A DNA stretch of 64,000 bases, taken from assembly GCA_014323925.1 (NCBI GenBank), contig JACONC010000002.1:58571-122570 (forward strand), written 5' to 3'. Position 1 is the first letter of the stretch. The number at the start of each line of letters is the position of its first letter. This document shows, piece after piece, positions 7,799 through 52,251 of this stretch. The notes under the pieces are model-generated. The model had not been told where the DNA came from. It saw only the letters and a program-made list of their open reading frames with translations, and made no database searches. The position numbers and the translations under genes were made by a program. Origin of the DNA: Chromatiales bacterium (GTDB lineage Bacteria; Pseudomonadota; Gammaproteobacteria; Poriferisulfidales; Oxydemutatoraceae).

Positions 7799-8353
7799 TC
7801 AACGAGTATTCAATACTTTTATATTTGATAGAAGCCGGATAGTTTGTTTTTCTAGGTCTGCAATCATACCCATGCCTTCTGTTATTTTGTTATGTTGCTT
7901 AAATGTAGCTTTCGCGTCGGTGTAAGCTGTTTTTTTGTCTAGATCAATCGTTGCATCACTGGTATATAAATACTCCGGCATATTAGTTTGCTGATTAATA
8001 CGGTAAATAGCAACATCACCTAATAAATCAATGAGTGCAGAGTCGTTATTAATATGCCCTTTATTTGCCGAAAGATTCAGCGGGGTGGCATCAGGGGTCT
8101 GATAGATGAACAGAGGTTTTTCAAACTCTAATCCGTTATCTTGTAGGTAAAGTATCACCGGACTAGTTAGTCGGTAAAGTAAATTTGCGTTATCGTCATA
8201 GGCGTTAATCGTCGCCTCTTCAAATCGACTATTATTACCGTTTTGCAACAAGGTGTCTACGCTGAGCTTGAAGTCGGCTTGCATCGTGCTACTCAGCAGC
8301 GCAATTAAGCCTAACGATAGGCAATATAAGCTAAATGAAAGTTGTTTATACAA
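7799..8353 (-). CDS. lptC: LPS export system protein LptC
   Basis: N-terminal TM anchor, size and position upstream of lptA. Confidence 0.6.
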   Translation of the reverse strand: MYKQLSFSLYCLSLGLIALLSSTMQADFKLSVDTLLQNGNNSRFEEATINAYDDNANLLYRLTSPVILYLQDNGLEFEKPLFIYQTPDATPLNLSANKGHINNDSALIDLLGDVAIYRINQQTNMPEYLYTSDATIDLDKKTAYTDAKATFKQHNKITEGMGMIADLEKQTIRLLSNIKVLNTR

Positions 8354-13362: not shown

Positions 13363-15450
13363 CTACTCAGAGTGCTTCATGGTCAATCGGACTCGTCCTT
13401 GTTTATCTATGTCTAGCACTTTCACCCTGACTTCATCGCCTTCATTGACTTTATCCCTAATATTCTTGACATGTTCTTCGCAAATCTGCGAGATATGCAA
13501 TAAGCCATCTTTGCCTGGCAAAACGGATACAAAGGCACCAAAATCCATAATACGTACAACCTTCCCGTCATAGATCTTTCCTATTTCTACATCGGCGGTT
13601 AGTTCTTCAATCCGACTTTTCGCTTGATTGGCTGACTCACCGTCTGGTGAGGCTATCACTATCGTACCGTCATCTTCTACATTAATGACAGCACCGGTTT
13701 CTTCAGTTAGCGCTTTGATTGTCGCCCCTCCTTTGCCGATAACATCTTTTATTTTACTCGGCTTAACCTTCAGGGTTAGCAGTTTAGGAGCATACTGTGA
13801 AAACGCCTTAGGACTATCAAGAACTGCATTCATTTTGCCAAGAATATGCAGGCGGCCGTCTCTAGCTTGCTCTAAAGCAACGAACATAATCTCTGGACTG
13901 ACGCCTTCTATCTTTATATCCATCTGCAATGCTGTGATACCTTTCTCAGTACCCGCAACCTTGAAATCCATATCTCCGAAATGATCCTCATCTCCCATAA
14001 TGTCGCTTAACACCGCATAACGCTCGTCTTGCAAGATCAATCCCATAGCAATGCCACCTACATGCGATTTAAGCGGAACGCCGGCATCCATCAATGACAT
14101 ACTGGCACCGCAAATCGACGCCATAGAACTGGAGCCATTTGATTCGGTTATTTCCGAGACAACTCGTATTACATAAGGAAATTCACTCTTGTCAGGCATT
14201 ACTGCCTGCAAGCCTCGCTTTGCTAAATTGCCATGACCTATCTCGCGACGCTTAGGAGAACCCATAAATCCAACTTCACCGACACAATAAGCCGGGAAAT
14301 TATAGTGCAACATAAAACGCTCTCGATACTCATTTTCAAGCCCGTCTATAATTTGAGCATCTTTATCAGTGCCTAGCGTTGTGCTAACAATAGCTTGGGT
14401 TTCACCGCGCGTAAATAAAGCGTCCCCATGCACCCTAGGCAATTGCCCGACTTCAATACTAATAGGTCTAATCGTACGAGTGTCGCGCCCGTCTATACGC
14501 GGATCTCCGTTGATAATTCTATTACGAACAATCTTCTTTTCTAGCATAGAAAATGCATTCAGTATTTGCATCTCACGGTTGTCTTTATCTTCTTCGTTAT
14601 TGTCATCAGCGAGTAATGTGAGTGCTCGCTCGCGTAACTCGGCAACTTTCTCTTGGCGTTCAATCTTATCAGCAATGGTATAAGCTGCTTGTAATGCAGA
14701 AGCGATGCTGTTCTCCAATTCTTGCATTAATCCATCAAGGTTAGCCATAGGTTGCCAATCCCACTTCGGATTACCAACTTCTTTCGCCATCTCCTTAATT
14801 GCAGTGATAGCCGGCTGCATCTGCTCGTGTCCGAAAACAACTGCACCCAACATCTGCTCTTCACTCAACTGGTTTGCTTTTGATTCAACCATAAGAACCG
14901 CCTTATCAGTGCCGGCTACAACCAGATCTAGGTCTGAAGCAGACAACTGATCTAATCTGGGGTTTAACAAATAATTCCCGTCTTGAAAACCGATACGCGC
15001 AGCTCCTATAGGACCGTTAAACGGAATACCTGAAATAGTAAGCGCAGCGGATGTTGCCAATAGAGCTGGGATATCTGCATCTACTTTGGGGTTTAGTGAT
15101 AGAACCGTGGCGACAACCTGTACTTCATCAGAAAAACCTTCCGGGAACAAAGGACGGATAGGCCTATCTATTAGCCTAGATGTTAAAGTTTCTTTTTCCG
15201 AAGGTCTGCCCTCGCGCTTAAAAAAACCTCCTGGTATTTTCCCAGCCGCGTATGTACGTTCCTGATAATAAACCGACAGTGGTAGAAAATCACGATAGGT
15301 GGAAGCTTCTCGCTTGCTAGCAACATTTGCCATAACTACAGTGTCGTCTATATTGACTACTACCGAACTATCAGCTTGCCGAGCAATTTTGCCAGTTTCT
15401 AATGTGACACTATGGGCACCATACTGGAATGTTTTCCGCACTACACGCAT
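13363..15450 (-). CDS. pnp: Polyribonucleotide nucleotidyltransferase (PNPase)
   Basis: Two RNase PH domains, KH and S1 domains, ~695 aa; downstream of rpsO. Confidence 0.95.
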
Positions 15451-15476
15451 ATTCTCTTTCTCTTCCGCCTAAATGA

Positions 15477-15746
15477 TTATCGGCGCAATCCCAGAGACGA
15501 TATTAAAGTTTGGTAGCGGTTTTTATCTTTGAATTTTAAGTAATCAAGAAGCTGGCGGCGTGAATTAACCATTCTAAGTAATCCCCTCCGCGAATGTGTA
15601 TCTTTCTTATGCTCTATGAAATGACTTTGGAGTCCATTGATACGCTTGGTCAATAGTGCAACTTGTACTTCGGTTGAACCAGTATCATTTTCGGAACGCG
15701 CATATTGCTTAACTACTTCAATTTTTTCTTCTTTACTTAAAGGCAT
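15477..15746 (-). CDS. rpsO: 30S ribosomal protein S15
   Basis: 89 aa, [15 protein letters not shown]...[11 protein letters not shown]...HSRRGLL; rpsO-pnp synteny. Confidence 0.95.
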
Positions 15747-16010: not shown

Positions 16011-16754
16011 TTAACTGCGATCCAGTATTATAGGAATTTCGTTCCAAATTTTTCCGTCAAGATCCCTACCATTGACCTTTTTGTTACGGCTCTGCCCATC
16101 TTCACCCCAACGTCCCCATTGTTTGAAAAAAAACGGAATCTTCTTTGTCTGGCATTGTTTTTGAATTGACATTACCCAGGCTTTATCCATCAATCTGGCT
16201 TTATGCCCGGATTCACCACCCACAATGACCCAATGAATACCATCCAAATCTATTACACCTAAATCTTCTAATAAGGGTTCTATAGATAAAAATCTTATTT
16301 TTGCTGAAATTTCACGCAGTATTGGTATTCTTGGAAGGCCATGTTTCTTATTTTCTACTGAAACACCAAGCCATATATTGTCAGGAATCATACGCTTATT
16401 AAAATATTTTGCCATGATTTTAGGGCGCTTGGTTAAAAGCTGATAGTTATGTTGTGGCGACTGGTGGATTGTCTCCATAACACGGTCAATAAAATGAAAC
16501 GGAACATAAGGATGGAATAAATCACTCATTGAGTTTATAAAATATATGGTCGGTGTTTTACGCAGCAACGGCTGCTTTAAGCGCTCTTCATGGCAAGACA
16601 CGGTAAAGCCGTTTTCATAACCAGAAACCCTCATAGCCTGCAATCGTCGTGCCATTACTTCGGCATAACAATACTTGCATCCTGCTGATATTTTTGTGCA
16701 ACCTGTAACAGGATTCCAAGTGCGTTCTGTCCATTCAATGCCTGAATTACTCAT
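16011..16754 (-). CDS. DUF5131 / phage Gp37-Gp68 family 'three-Cys-motif' protein
   Basis: Family-hallmark N-terminus IEWTERTWNPVTGCTKISAGCKYCYAE (Cx6Cx2C), downstream NSMSDLFH and GGESG motifs; last gene of R-M operon. Confidence 0.8.
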   Translation of the reverse strand: MSNSGIEWTERTWNPVTGCTKISAGCKYCYAEVMARRLQAMRVSGYENGFTVSCHEERLKQPLLRKTPTIYFINSMSDLFHPYVPFHFIDRVMETIHQSPQHNYQLLTKRPKIMAKYFNKRMIPDNIWLGVSVENKKHGLPRIPILREISAKIRFLSIEPLLEDLGVIDLDGIHWVIVGGESGHKARLMDKAWVMSIQKQCQTKKIPFFFKQWGRWGEDGQSRNKKVNGRDLDGKIWNEIPIILDRS

Positions 16755-16778: not shown

Positions 16779-17858
16779 TTAAAGAAATAAAGTTGGGTTT
16801 CTATTTTTTTTGAGAGAAATCGTAATTTTATCTTTGTATTTATTTCTGTCCTTGTATTCTGTTAGGTAGAAAGCACCTGGTGTTCTTTTCTGCTTCGGAA
16901 TAATTTCTAGTTTCCCTTCTATTTCCATTTCCTGTAGCACAGGGCGAACATCAGGAGGTAAAAAACCTTTCTTAACAATTTCTTCTGACAGTTCTGTATT
17001 ACTTATTGGTCCCTGTTTTTTAAGAAGCTCAGACAGATACTGATTTATTTGAGCATTATTAAAATCAGAAAAAGTTAGTTGCTGTTCTAGCTTATTTTTT
17101 ATATCATTTTTTGCTTTCAAAAATTTTTCTGCACCAGTTCTATGCTTAGTAATAAAAAATAAATGGTAGTGCGTATTTGCTACATTTCTGTTTTCTAATT
17201 CATAACTGTATCCATATTCAGTTTGCGCCATTTCTTTTAGAATTTTTATTAGTTTATCTGCAAAAGTGTGCTTTTTGCTTTTGCTTAATTCGCTCTCACT
17301 CATGCCTAAATTCAAAAGAAACCGGCGGGCAGGTTTATCTTTGTCATCTTTGTTATCTTTATCATCTTTGAATCTATAGATATGGTAGGTTGGCATAAAG
17401 ATCAAATAATCAATATTCCTTAAACTGAATAATCTAACTAAGTTGTCTTTTGAATATTGAGTATAGCCGTATGGATCTATAAAAACCAAGCTATGTAGAT
17501 TACGCTTTCCAGCCAAAAAATGGCTCATTCCATCTAGAAATTTTTTAGCATCCGCATTGAAAGTTTTCACAAAGTCTAAGTATTTATCCATTGATTTTTC
17601 TAGTCGCCGATGCTTTTCATCGTCTAGTTCGTTTAGAAATAAACGAATGTCTTTTTTATTATATTTTTCTCTAAATTCCTTTATAGTTTCTACCGCCACC
17701 ATTGCACTTCCTTTCTCTCCACCATCGTATACTCCTTCGCCTGCGAATGGTTCCCATACAGCAATCCTATCCCACTGATCTGAATTGCACATAACGAAAA
17801 GATAATGAGTTAGATACGCTTCGTATACGGCTATCTTCTCTTTTGTGTGTGGTTTCAT
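16779..17858 (-). CDS. TcmP-like partner protein (three-Cys-motif partner family), function unknown
   Basis: 359 aa; N-terminal HTKEKIAVYEAYLTHYL resembles recalled TcmP start; 24 bp upstream of DUF5131 gene on same strand; internal (DKD)n repeat; no HMM confirmation possible here. Confidence 0.45.
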   Translation of the reverse strand: MKPHTKEKIAVYEAYLTHYLFVMCNSDQWDRIAVWEPFAGEGVYDGGEKGSAMVAVETIKEFREKYNKKDIRLFLNELDDEKHRRLEKSMDKYLDFVKTFNADAKKFLDGMSHFLAGKRNLHSLVFIDPYGYTQYSKDNLVRLFSLRNIDYLIFMPTYHIYRFKDDKDNKDDKDKPARRFLLNLGMSESELSKSKKHTFADKLIKILKEMAQTEYGYSYELENRNVANTHYHLFFITKHRTGAEKFLKAKNDIKNKLEQQLTFSDFNNAQINQYLSELLKKQGPISNTELSEEIVKKGFLPPDVRPVLQEMEIEGKLEIIPKQKRTPGAFYLTEYKDRNKYKDKITISLKKNRNPTLFL

Positions 17859-17923: not shown

Positions 17924-20900
17924 TTAGTCAAAGATTGTAGAGATGTTGTTTGTCCAGTAACGGCTATATGCTTTGGAGGCGGTTGGCTCAGGGTTGAACA
18001 GCAAAAGTTTGATAGATACTTTTTGATTTTTTTTGTAGGTAAATAATTTAGGTTGTCCTGATTGCTCGAATAACTCTTTGTAACCGTCTATTTTGTGATA
18101 TGCGTTGGTGTGGGTTGTTCCTTTGGGGTCAACGAATACGATTTGATATTGGTTATCTTTACACATCCAAAAAATAAAATCAGGTAAAAATCGGCTATAG
18201 CTATGCACTTTGCTGTTGAAGTAGGGTATGTATATATTGTCCAGTGATTCATCTATTTTACTAAACATCCAGGCGTCCCATCGTCCGTTATCGTTTTGTG
18301 CAGTCCATTCTTCTAGTTTTTCAAGAAAATCAATCTCGCTCCGTTCTTTAACGATGTGCTGGATAAAGTTAGCCTGTTTGTGTCCGAGTATGATCGGCAG
18401 GTAATAGTGCTTGGCAATTTTTTTGATGGTCAGACCTTCGTGCTCCAGAGATTCTTCTCCGTCAATTATGTCTGCAAGCTGTTCGCGATTAATTAAGTCT
18501 TTTTCAAGTTTCTTAAATAATGCGGGCAGTTCCTCATCGGAGGTTTTACCGGCTTTAACCTGACGGATCTTCTTTGAAAGGTCGTTTAGGTATTTCTCTT
18601 GCACACGGATTTGGCGAAAATGGACAATGTCTTGCTGTCCTTCTGTTTCCTTGATGGGCCTCACCCCGCGGGTTTCTTCAATTTCGGTGTCAATGTGATG
18701 TAGCAGCCGACTTTGCAAAAAGGATAGTTGGTTGTAGTGTTTTTCTGGCTTAATCTCTATATGACTTTGTTGAGTAATCATTTTTTCTAAGCCATCAATC
18801 TGCGGTTTTGTCCATCTATCGCGAACGATGAACACTGATTCTGAAGTGGCTGCAAACCAGCGCTTGAATCTGTTCAGGGTTTGCTCGTTCATTGTAAATT
18901 TCGGTAGCTGTTGGCTACTACGCACCGCCCGATATTCGGGGACTAGCAAAGGCATTTTTACACGAGTGCTCTTGATTCTGGGTCTTTGTTCGAGTTCAAA
19001 CCCAGGCAACAATTCAAACGATGAATCTCTTTCCGTTTTCAATCCTTCTAAGACGGTCTTGATGGCTTCGCGATTAGTCGCGAATATAAACAATGTCTCA
19101 ATCGGCAATACTTTATCTAGGTGTTTTTCTAAGATAGCTTTTGTATTGTCGTCTAATTTAATCTCGCCCTGACTCGGCTGATAATTGCGTCTTTTCAAGT
19201 TAGCTTTTTTATTGCTGTCTTTCGTGAGCACTTGTTGTAGACGGCCGCGCTTGCTCGGAAGCGGTTGTATCCGCACTCCGCGGCCGATTGATTGGACGAC
19301 GAATTTTTTGGCATCGCTACCGACGCCGATATTGATATAGTTGATGATATTGGGGCGATTGGAATCCCAGCTTTCAAAAAATGAACGAGAGCCCATCAGG
19401 ATAGTAATCGGTCTTTTTTCTAGTTCGTCAAAGAACGATTTTTCTTGCAATGTGGTGGTTTCTTCATAGTTTGCAAGCAGATTGTTGCGCCACTTGGCAG
19501 TACTACCAATGCGTATCAATGCAAATGGCGAGGCAGCATTTTTCATCTGAAATGCTAGCTCTTTGTCATCTTTACTACGCACATATTGCAAGGCTCCCTT
19601 TCTTGTACTCAGAAAAACCATTTTTCGCAGCTTAGCAACCGTCATTTCTTCAATGGTTTTTTCGTCGCCGTCCAGGATATTTTGTTTGTTTGTGCTGAAA
19701 AGTAATTCTGCATTTTCCCAGTTGCTGACTAATTCCTCTTTTGCGGTCTTAAAAAGTTCATCAGTAATCTCTCCGCTGGCTATGCTACGCAAAGTTTCAA
19801 AAAAAGCTCGCAGATCATTTCGGTGGATATCGGTATTAACCGAATTGACCAAAGTCAGCATCAACGGTAAGTGATACAAATCGTTTCTCAAACCTGTGCT
19901 ATCTCGTAGCGCCTCAACCCGCATGGAAATATAAGCAAGGGCGATGAGTGATTTCAAAACTATTTTTTTTCGCTCAGTATCATTCACTTCTTCTCTTCTA
20001 TACCTAAATGCATCATACTCGCTTTCGTTCAGGTAGATGTTTTTACTTCGTCCTTCTTTTATAAACTCTGCCAAGTTATATTTTTTCACGGTGGTTGCAA
20101 TATCTTTTGGGTCAGTGAAAGTGGCAGAAAAGTTAAACAGAAATCCGTTGCGTGACATAACGGTATAATATGCTTGCCGTTTAGAATCTTCCTTAGTGCC
20201 TTTGTGCGCTTCGTCCAGTAAGATGAACCATTTGCCGTCTCTCTCGTAAGTTTGGTAGTCGGTCCGATTTTCTTTTTGTACATCGGAGATGTTGTCGCTG
20301 CGATGATAATATACCGGTATGGTATCTCCTAGAAGACCTTGATGTGCCCTCTGCATTGAGCGCAATGCGATTAAATCAATAGCTGCATCACGCGCATAGT
20401 TGAATTCATCAACCGTTTGCCGTATTTGCTTTAACAAATGCTCGCTTGGTGCCAGTATGAGAATGGGGTAGTTGGGAATTTCGTTGCGTTGCTGCAAAAA
20501 GTGCAAATACTCTATCAGTTTAATCATCACTAATGTTTTACCGCTGCCCGTTGCCATCCAAAAACACATTCGGTTGATCAGCTGGTGGTATTGGATAGAG
20601 GCTCCGTCGGGGGTAATGTATTCCGATAAGATACGGAACACTTCATTTTGTTTGTTTTTTTCTCTATTGGAGCGGGTGTCGTACTTTACTATGTCCGAAA
20701 ATTGAGCATTTGTATACAAAGCTCTGAAATTCCGCTTACGCCGCTCATCAGTTTGCTCTGGTTCGCTGGGTTGCCAATCGTATTTCTCTTGGTAATATCT
20801 AAACAGCGCGCAGGCAGCGTTCTTTAGAGCCGAGCGTTGATAGTCATATAATCGCTTGCGTTCGGAGAATGTGTAAATATCGTCTATACGCCAAGTTTCT

Positions 20901-20968
20901 GGTAGCTCGTCGTAGTGGACAGAACGGGCTATTTCTTCAAGGGTAGAAGTCATGCATTTCCCCACCAT
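17924..20968 (-). CDS. res: Type III restriction enzyme Res subunit (SF2 helicase-nuclease)
   Basis: Walker A MATGSGKTL, DEAH-box ILLDEAHKGT, C-terminal PD..D-x-K-like motif (LPDFIF...VFVDPKG); 19-nt overlap with upstream mod. Confidence 0.8.
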   Translation of the reverse strand: MVGKCMTSTLEEIARSVHYDELPETWRIDDIYTFSERKRLYDYQRSALKNAACALFRYYQEKYDWQPSEPEQTDERRKRNFRALYTNAQFSDIVKYDTRSNREKNKQNEVFRILSEYITPDGASIQYHQLINRMCFWMATGSGKTLVMIKLIEYLHFLQQRNEIPNYPILILAPSEHLLKQIRQTVDEFNYARDAAIDLIALRSMQRAHQGLLGDTIPVYYHRSDNISDVQKENRTDYQTYERDGKWFILLDEAHKGTKEDSKRQAYYTVMSRNGFLFNFSATFTDPKDIATTVKKYNLAEFIKEGRSKNIYLNESEYDAFRYRREEVNDTERKKIVLKSLIALAYISMRVEALRDSTGLRNDLYHLPLMLTLVNSVNTDIHRNDLRAFFETLRSIASGEITDELFKTAKEELVSNWENAELLFSTNKQNILDGDEKTIEEMTVAKLRKMVFLSTRKGALQYVRSKDDKELAFQMKNAASPFALIRIGSTAKWRNNLLANYEETTTLQEKSFFDELEKRPITILMGSRSFFESWDSNRPNIINYINIGVGSDAKKFVVQSIGRGVRIQPLPSKRGRLQQVLTKDSNKKANLKRRNYQPSQGEIKLDDNTKAILEKHLDKVLPIETLFIFATNREAIKTVLEGLKTERDSSFELLPGFELEQRPRIKSTRVKMPLLVPEYRAVRSSQQLPKFTMNEQTLNRFKRWFAATSESVFIVRDRWTKPQIDGLEKMITQQSHIEIKPEKHYNQLSFLQSRLLHHIDTEIEETRGVRPIKETEGQQDIVHFRQIRVQEKYLNDLSKKIRQVKAGKTSDEELPALFKKLEKDLINREQLADIIDGEESLEHEGLTIKKIAKHYYLPIILGHKQANFIQHIVKERSEIDFLEKLEEWTAQNDNGRWDAWMFSKIDESLDNIYIPYFNSKVHSYSRFLPDFIFWMCKDNQYQIVFVDPKGTTHTNAYHKIDGYKELFEQSGQPKLFTYKKNQKVSIKLLLFNPEPTASKAYSRYWTNNISTIFD

Positions 20969-23610
20969 AAATAAGGTTTCAGCAACGATATAAAATGAAT
21001 CTGCTCTTCTTTATCCATTTTGGTTGGGTTTATTTTCTCTACACTCCCATCGGCGAAGGTCACACTGTCTGCCGTTCGGCGCCGGATATGTTTACCTAGT
21101 ATGTTGGCTAGAGATTCGGCTATATCTATATCGGAACAAAGCGATTTCAGGTTGATTTTTAGCTTGCCACTTGTTAATGGTTTGACGATATGTGAGAGCT
21201 TGTCGTCGGCGAAAAAAACATATTGCTCAAACGGCGACTTTGCACTGTCTAGTTCCAATTGCTCGCCGTCTTCGTAGCGTGCATTTCTCAATGTTTCCTC
21301 GTATTGCTCTAAACTATAGTATTTCAGACAATGACTGCTACCTTCGCAAGACACCGGCTTTCCTTTGTTCCAATCTTTAGAATAGACAACCTTTTTGATA
21401 CGCGGCAATAGCACGGTGTGAAAATATTCACCCATTTCTACGAGCAGATATTTTCTGTTACCACCATCTTCTTGGTTTAGATTAATGATTGCATGGGCAG
21501 TTGTGCCAGAACCGGCGAAGTAGTCAAGAATAATTGAATGGGAATTTGCCCCTATGACCAAAGAATCCTTAACAGTATTTAGACTTTTGGGGTAGGAAAA
21601 TTTATCAAAATCATCACTAAACATTTTTTTTAATAATATCGTTCCGTGAGACGAAGCATCGTACTTAGAATCTACCCATATAGATTTGGGCATTATTTCT
21701 TGTTTGATTCTATCTTTAACATAAATTACGCAATTGTCTTTTCTCTCTTTTACTATAATTTCGGTTTTTAATTTACTTTGTAGTGTCTCTTTTCCCCATC
21801 TCCAAATTCTTTCTTTACCTGAATCATCTATGGGTAGAATTTCAATGTCGCTTTTCTGTTCTCTTTTTGTGGAAAGCTTTTTACTTTTAGGATTCCAAAA
21901 GAGCGGATAGTAAAGATTAGGCCTAGCTTGTCGTGTAGAATTAGAACCAGTACGCCTAAAAGGAACTTCTTTATATTTTCCCAAAGAATCTCTTTTGTTG
22001 TATGTCTGTTCAAGGACATCTTTATTTGCAGTAAACTTGCTTGTTTCAAGTTTTTGTATGTCTTTTGCATATAAAAGGCAGTAATCATGCGCCGCCGCCA
22101 AATGTTTGGCATCACTGCGCCCCCCCGGATTAGACATAATAGAAATATTACCCACATGATTATTACTTTCGAAAATGGACTTAAATAATATGCCAAGATA
22201 CTCCATTTCTTCATCATCTATAGCGACTTCCATTATCCCATTTGAAGATAGGTAGGATTTAGATAAATGCACCCTGTTTTCTATTAAGCATAAAAAAGAA
22301 GAGTGTTTATATGAGTTTTTATAAACAATTTCGGATGATGAAGTATTATATGGCGGATCAATATAAATACATTTCACTTGCTCTTTGTATCGTCTTTGTA
22401 GTGTGTTCAGTGCTTGCCAATTCTCACTATGCACCAATTCTCCGTCCAGTGCTTCGTCTAAGTTTCCCAAGCAGGCAAGAATTTCCAGTTCCAAATCTTT
22501 GAAGTGTCGGGTGTCTAGAGGTAGAAATTTATATTGACTGCCCACTTTGTTGGTATCGTCTATTCTGCGTTGTCCATTAAAAAGGTCTTTTATTAAAAAC
22601 TGATTATCTACTATTCCCAGTTCGTGCCATTCTTTGATCTGTGCTTTCACACCTTTGTGTTTGACTATTTCCTGCAGGACTTTATCGCTTAGCTTATCTA
22701 AAGTTACGACATAGTTCACATTGCGCACAAACTTGGGCTTTTCCCATATCCGACGAAGCTCGTCCTCAAACTGGGCAATAAAATCGATAATTTCATAGGC
22801 AGTATCTTTAATGGCTTGTAGTTGTTGGATCCGCTCAGCATCAAAATGGGTTGTTCCCTCAAAGATGTATTGATAAAGCCATAAATTAAATTGCTCTTGT
22901 AAAAAGCGCCTGGCATCTTTGTTGATAAAAAAATCTACCTCAGTTTGCTTGCGAAACACACTGATTGCTTTTTGAAGTTCGTCTTCGGTTAAACGAGTCT
23001 TTTGCTTGCGAGATTCTCTGATGATTTCTTCTGTCTGACTTTTTTTGTTGCCTTCTTTATAGCCGACTTTAAGACATATAACCTGCTTGTCTCCTTCCTT
23101 TTTCACCTTGTCAAATGCATAGATGAATTCGCGCCGTTCGTTATTTCTCTTGTGCGTGCATTCGCTTACATCAAAATAAAAATGTTGTGTGCTATACGAT
23201 TTATCCGCATCGCGTAATTCAACCGGCATAGAATGTACCAATACATCGGATTTAACATAGTAAAGCATTTGTGTTTTCCAAGATAATGCGACATCTTGCC
23301 CGTCTTGATAGACGCGCTCATAGATTTTAGAGAATGCCGGAAGATGGCGGAAGTAAATAGACCCACTGTCACAAAAATAGCGATGAAAAAAAGTATAGAG
23401 CTTGTCAAACAATTCTTCGCGAAAAGCGGTATTGGGTGTTGCTCGCCGCTTAATATTTTCCATCAGCTCAGGGCGTATAGAACGAAAGTAATTACGCTTG
23501 ATACACATCAGATTGACGAATCCGGAATCTCCTTCTACTTCGGCGCCAGTAAACAAAGATTCCAGTGCATCAAGGAATCGCTTTTCTTTGCGTGAGTCCG
23601 AATAAATCAT
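20950..23610 (-). CDS. mod: Type III R-M Mod subunit (beta-class N6-adenine DNA methyltransferase)
   Basis: Motif IV DPPYNT precedes motif I DYFAGSGTT (beta-class order typical of Type III Mod); 886 aa. Confidence 0.8.
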   Translation of the reverse strand: MIYSDSRKEKRFLDALESLFTGAEVEGDSGFVNLMCIKRNYFRSIRPELMENIKRRATPNTAFREELFDKLYTFFHRYFCDSGSIYFRHLPAFSKIYERVYQDGQDVALSWKTQMLYYVKSDVLVHSMPVELRDADKSYSTQHFYFDVSECTHKRNNERREFIYAFDKVKKEGDKQVICLKVGYKEGNKKSQTEEIIRESRKQKTRLTEDELQKAISVFRKQTEVDFFINKDARRFLQEQFNLWLYQYIFEGTTHFDAERIQQLQAIKDTAYEIIDFIAQFEDELRRIWEKPKFVRNVNYVVTLDKLSDKVLQEIVKHKGVKAQIKEWHELGIVDNQFLIKDLFNGQRRIDDTNKVGSQYKFLPLDTRHFKDLELEILACLGNLDEALDGELVHSENWQALNTLQRRYKEQVKCIYIDPPYNTSSSEIVYKNSYKHSSFLCLIENRVHLSKSYLSSNGIMEVAIDDEEMEYLGILFKSIFESNNHVGNISIMSNPGGRSDAKHLAAAHDYCLLYAKDIQKLETSKFTANKDVLEQTYNKRDSLGKYKEVPFRRTGSNSTRQARPNLYYPLFWNPKSKKLSTKREQKSDIEILPIDDSGKERIWRWGKETLQSKLKTEIIVKERKDNCVIYVKDRIKQEIMPKSIWVDSKYDASSHGTILLKKMFSDDFDKFSYPKSLNTVKDSLVIGANSHSIILDYFAGSGTTAHAIINLNQEDGGNRKYLLVEMGEYFHTVLLPRIKKVVYSKDWNKGKPVSCEGSSHCLKYYSLEQYEETLRNARYEDGEQLELDSAKSPFEQYVFFADDKLSHIVKPLTSGKLKINLKSLCSDIDIAESLANILGKHIRRRTADSVTFADGSVEKINPTKMDKEEQIHFISLLKPYLWWGNA

Positions 23611-24084
23611 ACTATAAACTTATAGCAATTAAACTATGCGTTAAAATGATAGGGATAACCCGTATCGTCGTATGTGTGTACTCCACAAAAGTATATCTCA
23701 GCTACAGATTTTTGATGAATTTGTGCCATTCTAGCATAGAGATTTGGAATATAGCCCGACTTTCCGACGAACGGTATTTACCTATACATTACTTGGAAAA
23801 TCAGGGTTTAGATGCGGGTTATTTTCCTTAATAGAGTTGACTTTTAATAAGGCATCAATGGCGATACCATTATAACTATGAGCGACCGCACAGTTCCCTT
23901 AACTACCTAACGCCTGTAGCGTTTGTGGAGAGAGTAGCTTAAGATGAAATCTCATCCATGCTATGACCCTGAAAAAGAGGGAAGGTCATATTCATATTGG
24001 ATAAGTCTAGGAATGAAGTAGCGAAGCGTTGCATAGAGGTTTGAGAACATAATCTCTCAAAGTTATATAGGGTTTGCCAATTAT

Positions 24085-24378: not shown

Positions 24379-24466
24379 CGTGTTATTTCAACAAACAACG
24401 ATATTATAACTTGTTTATAGATTAAACCCTATATAATTACACTAGAACATAGAAACAGGAGATGTT

Positions 24467-51447: not shown

Positions 51448-52251
51448 ATGGATTCAATGAATAGTATAAGCCTAAAAAAGAAGTTAAGCATCCTAAGAAA
51501 TATCATAAGAGAAATAAAGGCAATGGAGTCACTAGGAATTTTTCTCGCAAGATTGACTAGCCATAATATGTTATGGAGCCGACCAGCGAGTGGTAATCAC
51601 TGGGTACGCTTTATCGCTGAATATGTAACCGGCCACCCGACCGGTGGTTGTATTAATAATAAACAGGATGCACCTATTCACTTGCATAAATTTCCTGATG
51701 GAGATAAACCGTTATCCCATGTAAAAGCAAGAAAAACCTATGTTTTACATAAAGAGCATAACCCGGACTATCTCTGCTACCGCTACCATCCCATTGGTCT
51801 ATTGATACTGTTAATTCGTGATTTCCACGAATATATAGCGCATAGGAGCGGTTATACAAATTTTGTAAGTCTTGAAACTGAGAAGCAGTACTATTTGCTG
51901 TATATAGAACTTATAAAAGCGTATGATGATTTCACTGGGACTAAAATAGTTATCTATTACGAGGATCTAATCCTAAAACCAGAGCGAGAAATATTGCGCA
52001 TCAAAAATATTTTAGGCGGCTCTGAAATCCGCTATAAAACTCTTATCCACCGTTACGATTATTATGCAAAACTTTCGAGAAATGCTAAGAACAGGGCATG
52101 GCGTGGTAGTATTTCCGGAATGGATTTAATATTTCATCGAACTACGAGCGATAAAAAAGAACTGCAAAGACGGCTGGAATTATTTCACAAACTTCTCTCC
52201 AACCGTCGCTTCCAACAAGTAAAGCCTTATCTAGATAGATATTTAAGATAG
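51448..52251 (+). CDS. Hypothetical protein (267 aa), AT-rich
   Basis: ORF only; preceded by very AT-rich 200 bp; no motif recognised. Confidence 0.4.
   Translation: MDSMNSISLKKKLSILRNIIREIKAMESLGIFLARLTSHNMLWSRPASGNHWVRFIAEYVTGHPTGGCINNKQDAPIHLHKFPDGDKPLSHVKARKTYVLHKEHNPDYLCYRYHPIGLLILLIRDFHEYIAHRSGYTNFVSLETEKQYYLLYIELIKAYDDFTGTKIVIYYEDLILKPEREILRIKNILGGSEIRYKTLIHRYDYYAKLSRNAKNRAWRGSISGMDLIFHRTTSDKKELQRRLELFHKLLSNRRFQQVKPYLDRYLR

Follow-up and report, generated by a model that had tools for sequence, protein, structure and literature searches.

A mod-res gene pair in a sponge-associated Chromatiales bacterium, probably a restriction-modification system of Type III from the long-Mod branch related to Eco86II

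Eco86II, EcoF9792I and EcoB4103II are Type III restriction-modification (R-M) systems that have been assigned to the Escherichia coli strains NCTC86, F9792 and B4103-1, respectively (Murray et al. 2021, PMC8259958). In Eco86II, a gene for a helicase-like ATPase lies 5′ of mod, the gene of the methyltransferase subunit (Mod), and the mod insert is about 3.2 kb. The enzyme has been shown to methylate GAGCC to N4-methylcytosine (m4C), and it cuts about 25 bp 3′ of its site in substrates with head-to-head sites (PMC8259958). For DthLIII and FnoB1III, Mod needs the restriction subunit (Res) for efficient methylation, and the m4C Mods are diverse, with the same DPPY/F motif as N6-methyladenine (m6A) Mods (PMC8259958). 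Here we describe a mod-res pair in a 64,000-nucleotide stretch of DNA, called the window below, from a Chromatiales bacterium (assembly GCA_014323925.1, contig JACONC010000002.1, positions 58,571 to 122,570). We hold with considerable confidence that the two genes form a self-contained Type III R-M system of the long-Mod branch that, as the sequence suggests, is translationally coupled, and that has Eco86II as the closest characterized relative we found.

The pair consists of two long, intact open reading frames (ORFs) on the minus strand, mod at 20950..23610 (2.66 kb, 886 aa) and res at 17924..20953 (3.03 kb, 1009 aa, from the ATG at 20953). Its features are those of a Type III system: the order of the motifs in Mod, the homology of Mod to Type III Mods, a set of superfamily 2 (SF2) motifs followed by a PD-(D/E)xK motif block in Res, and the arrangement of mod and res as an operon. 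The earlier note on this DNA had called the pair Type III from the DPPY and FAGSGTT motifs of Mod and the Walker A, DEAH and PD…DxK-like motifs of Res. This call has stood, for Mod by sequence and fold, for Res by its motifs and domain order, and for both by homology to proteins of strain NCTC86, as have the individual motifs, which are all present, in the order given.

In Mod, the catalytic motif IV (DPPY, aa 418-421, at 22348..22359 on the minus strand) lies N-terminal of the AdoMet-binding motif I (FAGSGTT, aa 698-704, at 21499..21519 on the same strand). Both are invariant or nearly so across 42 Mod homologues; the alignments of Mod and Res held 42 homologues each, at 53-72% identity overall and 53-68% in the Res set. 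Pfam N6_N4_Mtase matches Mod with E 6.5e-23, and the PADLOC model MTase_III PDLC03638 covers it over its full length with E 7e-197, Type II models scoring far lower. When the Mod family profile was compared with the PDB, the top three matches by sequence were Type III Mods, those of Mbo45V (E 2.6e-51), Helicobacter pylori (E 2e-45) and EcoP15I (E 8e-44), and motifs IV and I aligned with the same motifs in these solved proteins. Foldseek, run with an AlphaFold2 (AF2) model of moderate quality, likewise returned the Mbo45V, H. pylori and EcoP15I Mods as top matches. By its sequence and by the fold of its model, Mod is a bona fide Type III Mod, a beta-class amino-methyltransferase of the long-Mod branch.

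The centre of Mod, between the two motifs (about aa 440-690, at 21541..22293, minus strand), is the presumed target-recognition domain (TRD). Here the consensus breaks down in the alignment of 42 sequences, with conservation on either side, and several homologues align at 60-64% identity across only 55-59% of the query. Conserved ends around a variable centre are the usual signature of TRD exchange. A run of seven C at 22120..22126 (G7 on the coding strand, encoding Pro-Gly-Gly) lies within the variable region. Phase-variation repeats were sought in mod and res and none was convincing, with just this 7-nt G/C run, short for such a tract, and some T8 runs. The N-terminal region of about 390 aa (22441..23610, minus strand) is conserved in the 42 homologues and absent from EcoP15I-type Mods, and alignments of the Mod profile to solved Mods start only at profile position ~390. 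The long Mod of E. coli has this region too; BLASTP aligns the two from aa 48 onwards, and hhalign from aa 60. At the other end, a C-terminal tail of about 130 extra aa is distinct from that of EcoP15I Mod. Pfam, at E ≤ 1, gave nothing credible for either extension of Mod or for aa 570-1009 of Res.

The most likely reading of Res, from its sequence and model, is an SF2 ATPase with a C-terminal PD-(D/E)xK-type nuclease, that is, a Type III Res subunit of a divergent branch. Pfam ResIII/DEAD matches the N-terminal ATPase with E 1.2e-17. Its motifs are all encoded on the minus strand: GSGKT as Walker A (aa 136-140, 20534..20548) and Walker B DEAH (aa 247-250, 20204..20215), both placed by the homologue alignment, then SAT (aa 276-278), motif V ESWDSNRPN (aa 527-535, 19349..19375) and motif VI QSIGRGVR, of the form QxxGRGxR (aa 554-561, 19271..19294). 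The candidate nuclease motif follows near the C-terminus with PDF at aa 924-926 and DPK at aa 942-944 (together 18122..18184). GSGKT, DEAH, PD and DPK are invariant in 42 homologues, and the core residues of SAT and of motifs V and VI are invariant or nearly so; conservation of both sets argues for selection on the ATPase and the nuclease activity alike. In the AF2 model, where the predicted local distance difference test score is mostly about 75-89, a helix at 871-887 with the invariant E873 precedes the strands in question, PD stands just before strand 926-932, and DPK ends strand 935-942. The modelled placement of PD and DPK on successive beta-strands after the E873 helix is the canonical PD-(D/E)xK layout. 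The motif is further backed by alignments with the Res proteins of EcoP1I and E. coli. With EcoP1I Res, hhalign aligned the extreme C-terminal PDF…K block only, in collinear order (E 0.0028). The best fold match of Res as a whole was EcoP15I Res.

Several results weigh against the assignment of Res. No PADLOC model matches it, REase_III included, NCBIfam gave just Walker-A-level matches far below the cut-offs, and a PDB sequence search matched no chain even with the 42-sequence Res profile. The EcoP1I nuclease-block alignment has a probability of just 11%. Res is thus recognized neither by curated Res models nor by homology to EcoP15I or EcoP1I, and its nuclease domain is supported at the level of motif and model, an independent fold match being absent. 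An exhaustive phmmer search with Res among 1.84 billion representatives gave 1071 matches at E ≤ 1e-3, 290 of them at E ≤ 1e-30; with so few matches, the family is compact and isolated in sequence space.

A characterized relative was reached through E. coli. A low-stringency blastn search with mod against complete E. coli genomes matched long genes annotated as 'site-specific DNA-methyltransferase'. These belong to a locus of three genes that encode, besides an SNF2-related protein, a methyltransferase (1034-1057 aa) and a 1126-aa DEAD/DEAH protein. E. coli NCTC86, F9792 and O27:H7 B4103-1 have the same locus with another central Mod region. From the strains and the description in PMC8259958, which the locus fits with a helicase-like gene 5′ of a mod of about 3.1 kb, we infer that the NCTC86 locus is Eco86II; the equation is drawn from the paper's description and not from an accession number, which tells somewhat against it. 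Compared by hhalign, the Mod profile matched NCTC86 Mod with a probability of 100% (E 4.7e-97, 693 columns, N-terminal region included) and the Res profile matched NCTC86 Res with a probability of 99.4% (E 4.3e-21). BLASTP of Res against a near-identical E. coli allele (FDAARGOS_536) also aligned the C-terminal PDF…DPKG block (PDF..IDPKG). Since both profiles match, the pair belongs to a long-Mod Type III branch with an experimentally verified relative, provided that the NCTC86 locus is Eco86II. In E. coli, the Eco86II-type locus (L177-L179) lies in a variable region, with CbtA/YeeU toxin-antitoxin genes and a gene annotated as 'phosphorothioated DNA-binding restriction endonuclease' for neighbours; one of the strains has tRNA-Leu next to it. 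Matches were present in 167 of 5426 complete E. coli genomes, and many alleles vary solely in the central part of Mod.

The junction of mod and res bears on their coupling. Public gene calls begin res at the ATG at 20953 and record a 1009-aa product, and a 1014-aa product has no public record. Res homologues begin at the residue equivalent to this start, and a GGGGA lies 5 nt upstream of it. The start of res is therefore most likely the ATG at 20953. With it, the stop of mod and the start of res share the four nucleotides ATGA (20950..20953, minus strand), and relatives have the same overlap. The overlap suggests translational coupling of mod and res. An overlap of 19 nt, as had been proposed earlier, is an artefact of choosing the longest ORF, and the public start, the homologue starts and the GGGGA all favour the ATGA.

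We also examined 85 loci with Res homologues: 80 come from metagenome contigs, three from contigs of metagenome assemblies (one of them also in NCBI) and two from plasmids. In 75 of these, the Res homologue has a Mod homologue upstream on its own strand, and in most of the other ten the upstream sequence was too short to judge. The closest Mod/Res homologues, at 63-72% identity, adjoin type II secretion or ATP synthase genes. Further pairs are found on Rhodothermus and Athalassotoga plasmids, and the family is present in Thermotogota. The two-gene long-Mod clade comprises about 290 clusters at 50% identity (E ≤ 1e-30) from many phyla. Because Mod accompanies Res in 75 of the 85 loci, the DUF5131 gene that lies near the pair in the window is missing from all of them, TcmP has no convincing match there, and the contexts are unrelated, Mod-Res appears to be a self-contained mobile pair.

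At 29 of the 85 loci, mod and res stand about 0.4-2.5 kb apart, and the gap is nearly always filled by a gene on the same strand (examples are L090, L097, L104, L112, L114, L115, L117, L123, L145, L149, L156, L158 and L170). The genes in these gaps encode pairs of a nucleotidyltransferase and a HEPN protein, Schlafen AlbA_2/HATPase_c_4 proteins, Fic and RhuM, and on the Rhodothermus plasmid SMODS and Cap15, which resemble a cyclic oligonucleotide-based antiphage signalling system (CBASS). Larger ORFs of 485-776 aa, with P-loop-like motifs, also occur there. The space between mod and res seems to be a favoured place for toxin-antitoxin or defence genes to become embedded. For the homologues P0004/P0007 and P0130/P0136, the longest contig has in each case a length of 2,339,990 bp; if this is one and the same contig, an assembly of about 2.34 Mb has two paralogous Mod-Res pairs of the family.

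In the window, four minus-strand genes lie between hspQ and rpsO, in the order mod, res, tcmP and a DUF5131 gene, as same-strand neighbours with short gaps of 24-65 nt. The tcmP gene (three-Cys-motif partner protein, 16779..17858, minus strand, 359 aa) matches NCBIfam TIGR04474 (E 1.7e-36) and PADLOC PDC-M30A (E 1e-53). A 9-nt tandem repeat within it (17335..17370) gives rise to the residues DKDNKDDKDK in the protein. The DUF5131 gene (Gp37/Gp68-like, 16011..16754, minus strand, 247 aa) matches Pfam DUF5131 (E 4e-106), PADLOC PDC-M30B (E 8e-112) and PHROG 2045, and its product has a weak match to 'radical SAM mobile pair protein A'. Together, the two genes next to res match the candidate defence system PDC-M30 of PADLOC (TcmP plus DUF5131), a neighbour that lies outside the R-M system. 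A literature search on TcmP, DUF5131 and PDC-M30 found no functional study.

The composition of the block is unusual only in part. Its G+C content is 0.33-0.42, compared with 0.445 ± 0.026 for the other 48 ORFs of the window, and its proteins contain 26-30% Lys, Asn, Ile and Phe, compared with 20% elsewhere in the window. The AT-richness and the abundance of these four residues that the earlier note had seen were both confirmed in this way, but the atypical codon use that would go with them was not. The G+C content at third codon positions (GC3) is 0.45 in res, above the window mean of 0.414, and 0.368 in mod (z = -1.2), and the synonymous codon usage of both genes is host-like. The only clear GC3 outlier is tcmP (0.278, z = -3.6), the lowest of the window ORFs analysed. 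Given the host-like GC3 and codon usage of mod and res, their AT-richness comes mostly from proteins rich in Lys, Asn, Ile and Phe. Two further ORFs, at 51448..52251 (G+C 0.374) and 7799..8353 (0.386), are low in G+C and rich in the same residues, so low G+C is not unique to the block in the window.

At the hspQ side, directly upstream of mod, lies the decayed C-terminal remnant of an insertion sequence (IS) transposase of the IS3 type (23730..23942, perhaps to ~23990, plus strand). It matches Pfam rve_3 with E 2.1e-7 and 31 bits, above the cut-off of 26.5, its translation reads ...YNYERPHSSLNYLTPVAF... with in-frame stops, and it takes up a large part of the 475 nt that separate mod from a 97-aa ORF. 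We read this remnant as a probable mobile-element scar at that border of the block. A short inverted repeat, TGACC…GGTCA, follows its stop, and no second copy of the remnant was found within the window. No tRNA was found at the borders of the block, as had been stated before; the accompanying statement that an integrase is absent holds for an intact one, with the IS3-type remnant beside mod as the qualification. A search for flanking repeats, terminators and promoters at the block gave nothing beyond chance. The context of rpsO is indeed unusual, as the earlier note had it: among 66 other proteobacterial loci, 52 have truB directly upstream of rpsO, but truB is missing from the window.

Several metagenome assemblies contain DNA of the window at 100% or 97-98% identity, and one or more of them bears the label of a sponge metagenome. 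One of these (L004, from the Joint Genome Institute (JGI) metagenome 3300012946, about 98% identical) diverges at ~15952, which is 59 nt past the DUF5131 stop, and continues with 34 nt of alternative sequence. Contigs of SRR10406140 that are 100% identical to the window break at both flanks of the block (15875, 15926 and 23937). The junction and the breaks may reflect presence/absence variation, on the basis of those 34 nt. A scan of 185,579 species-representative genomes with the polynucleotide phosphorylase (PNPase) query region (13363..15746) reached nothing closer than 65% identity and so found no empty site. When JGI metagenomes were scanned for an exact pattern from upstream of rpsO, nothing matched, and searching for exact copies of the proteins S15, HspQ and the 97-aa ORF led just to short contigs, either from the same strain or from strains 97-98% identical to it. 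The comparison of the rpsO-hspQ interval that had been suggested for deciding between presence and absence yielded one variant junction, the short one of L004. Two related strains (L006:339-585 and L007:1-52) have an insertion of about 247 bp, absent from the window, at window position 24441/24447, between the 97-aa ORF and hspQ, with a called 55-aa ORF inside.

Two questions about the block have to be weighed together, whether it is one system and whether it was inserted. The adjacency of the four genes on one strand and their lower G+C content relative to the flanks would suit a single functional system, and the earlier note had treated them as one defence island. The survey speaks for two separate modules, because DUF5131 occurs in none of the 85 loci and TcmP has no convincing match there (two weak ones, at 24% identity). 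Mod-Res also stands alone in unrelated contexts, TcmP and DUF5131 match a PADLOC candidate of their own, and the GC3 of tcmP is much lower than that of mod and res. We have rejected the single system, to which we give hardly any credence, and take TcmP-DUF5131 and Mod-Res to be independent modules. As for origin, horizontal acquisition of the block is likely, not recent and moderately supported, so the acquired island of the earlier note remains plausible; the lower overall G+C content of the block counts in its favour. The alternative is that the block is ancestral to the lineage and that its low G+C merely reflects proteins rich in Lys, Asn, Ile and Phe. It would account for the host-like GC3 and codon usage of mod and res, for the DUF5131 gene at the same site next to rpsO in two strains about 97% identical (L002 and L003), and for the failure to find flanking direct repeats, an intact integrase or an empty site, all of which count against insertion. 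It would leave unexplained the IS3-type remnant that abuts mod, the broken truB-rpsO linkage, the unrelated contexts of the closest Mod/Res homologues within a distribution that is patchy across phyla, and the divergence of L004 together with the breaks of one assembly at both flanks. We therefore regard an ancestral block as rather doubtful and prefer acquisition.

By analogy with EcoP15I and Eco86II, the system would work as follows. A Mod dimer would read a short asymmetric site through its variable central domain and, using AdoMet, would methylate one strand, at N6 of adenine or N4 of cytosine. One Res bound to Mod would use its SF2 ATPase as an ATP-triggered switch, with little ATP hydrolysed, followed by long-range sliding on DNA. 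Complexes that set out from two unmethylated, inversely oriented sites would collide, and the PD…DxK nuclease would then cut near one of the sites. Host DNA would be shielded by its methylation, and incoming phage or plasmid DNA would be cut. For EcoP15I, the scheme draws on PDB 4ZCF and PMC4490356.

One sub-variant, which would not contradict a Type III assignment, is that the pair belongs to the m4C subgroup, in which Mod makes N4-methylcytosine and needs Res for efficient methylation. The gene sizes of about 2.6 and 3.0 kb that we derive below for DthLIII and FnoB1III, with a vector size that we presume, match the pair, the family occurs in Thermotogota and Rhodothermus, and Eco86II, the only characterized relative found, makes m4C (PMC8259958). 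Identity to NCTC86 Mod is only about 30%, and because m4C and m6A Mods share DPPY/F (PMC8259958), the sequence does not tell which base is methylated; we consider membership in this subgroup possible, though the less likely case. A more radical proposal is that a Mod and a helicase-nuclease form a defence system that is Type III only in its parts and acts, for example, by moving DNA through loop extrusion (as in Type I or ISP enzymes) or by sensing DNA that is modified or foreign with the N-terminal domain of Mod. The isolation of Res, with its 1071 matches among 1.84 billion representatives and its lack of a match to classical Res profiles, and the extra regions of Mod (about 390 aa N-terminal and 130 aa C-terminal) would fit such a mechanism, but Eco86II, with the same long Mod and the same type of Res, cuts about 25 bp from its site in substrates with head-to-head sites, as a classical Type III enzyme does, and Res finds its best fold match in EcoP15I Res. 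We judge it improbable. Between these stands the idea that the two-gene long-Mod clade is a mechanistically distinct Type III branch, in which the N-terminal domain of Mod and the divergent Res alter the mode of action. We hold this only tentatively, as a somewhat unlikely case. If it were true, methylation might need Res, or the base might be m4C, and the N-terminal domain of Mod might replace the separate SNF2 ATPase of Eco86II-type systems. A Type III R-M system of the long-Mod branch is the reading that we retain.

On this reading, the locus is one further R-M system, of the ordinary defence kind, in an uncultured sponge-associated gammaproteobacterium. Its significance lies partly in annotation. 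In public records, Res goes by the name of 'DEAD/DEAH box helicase family protein'. For the Mod subfamily, PADLOC offers a full-length model, but no model there matches Res, and NCBIfam is without a Res model too. For want of a Res model, tools built on these libraries probably score such systems as orphan methyltransferases, and defence inventories would undercount them. The homology to NCTC86 (Eco86II) gives the long-Mod branch an experimental anchor, and the toxin-antitoxin or defence genes embedded at the mod-res junction are perhaps worth a systematic survey.

Finally, we compared the pair with the known systems one at a time. Eco86II resembles it in having a long Mod with a shared N-terminal domain, a Res of the same type, in which the helicase blocks are collinear and PDF…DPKG stands at the C-terminus, mod immediately upstream of res, and alleles that vary in the central TRD. 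However, the sequences share only about 30% identity, Eco86II has a larger Mod (1040 aa) and Res (1126 aa), and a third gene, which is SNF2-related, lies 5′ of its mod. The window has no such SNF2/SF2 gene and has the IS3-type remnant upstream of mod instead; tblastn with the E. coli SNF2-related protein found no match in the window or in the 85 related loci. The low identity and the missing third gene weigh against too close an equation with Eco86II. EcoP15I and EcoP1I (PDB 4ZCF) are like the window pair in the core of Mod (motif IV, TRD and motif I), which aligns with E 8e-44, in a Res made of an SF2 ATPase followed by a C-terminal PD-(D/E)xK nuclease, and in the order mod-res. In contrast, the window Mod has about 390 additional residues at its N-terminus and ends in another kind of C-terminal tail, and the window Res is undetectable from EcoP15I and EcoP1I Res by sequence and profile searches, save for the weak match of the nuclease motif. 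DthLIII, FnoB1III and TmeBIV, m4C Type III systems of thermophiles (PMC8259958), have a two-gene architecture, as in the window. Searching for homologues of the Athalassotoga Mod brought up no named protein of Fervidobacterium or Desulfurobacterium. For the gene sizes, we take the pRRS vector to be about 2.7 kb. On that figure, the plasmid sizes in PMC8259958 leave about 2.6 kb for the mod and about 3.0 kb for the res of DthLIII and FnoB1III, a likeness in size to the window pair.

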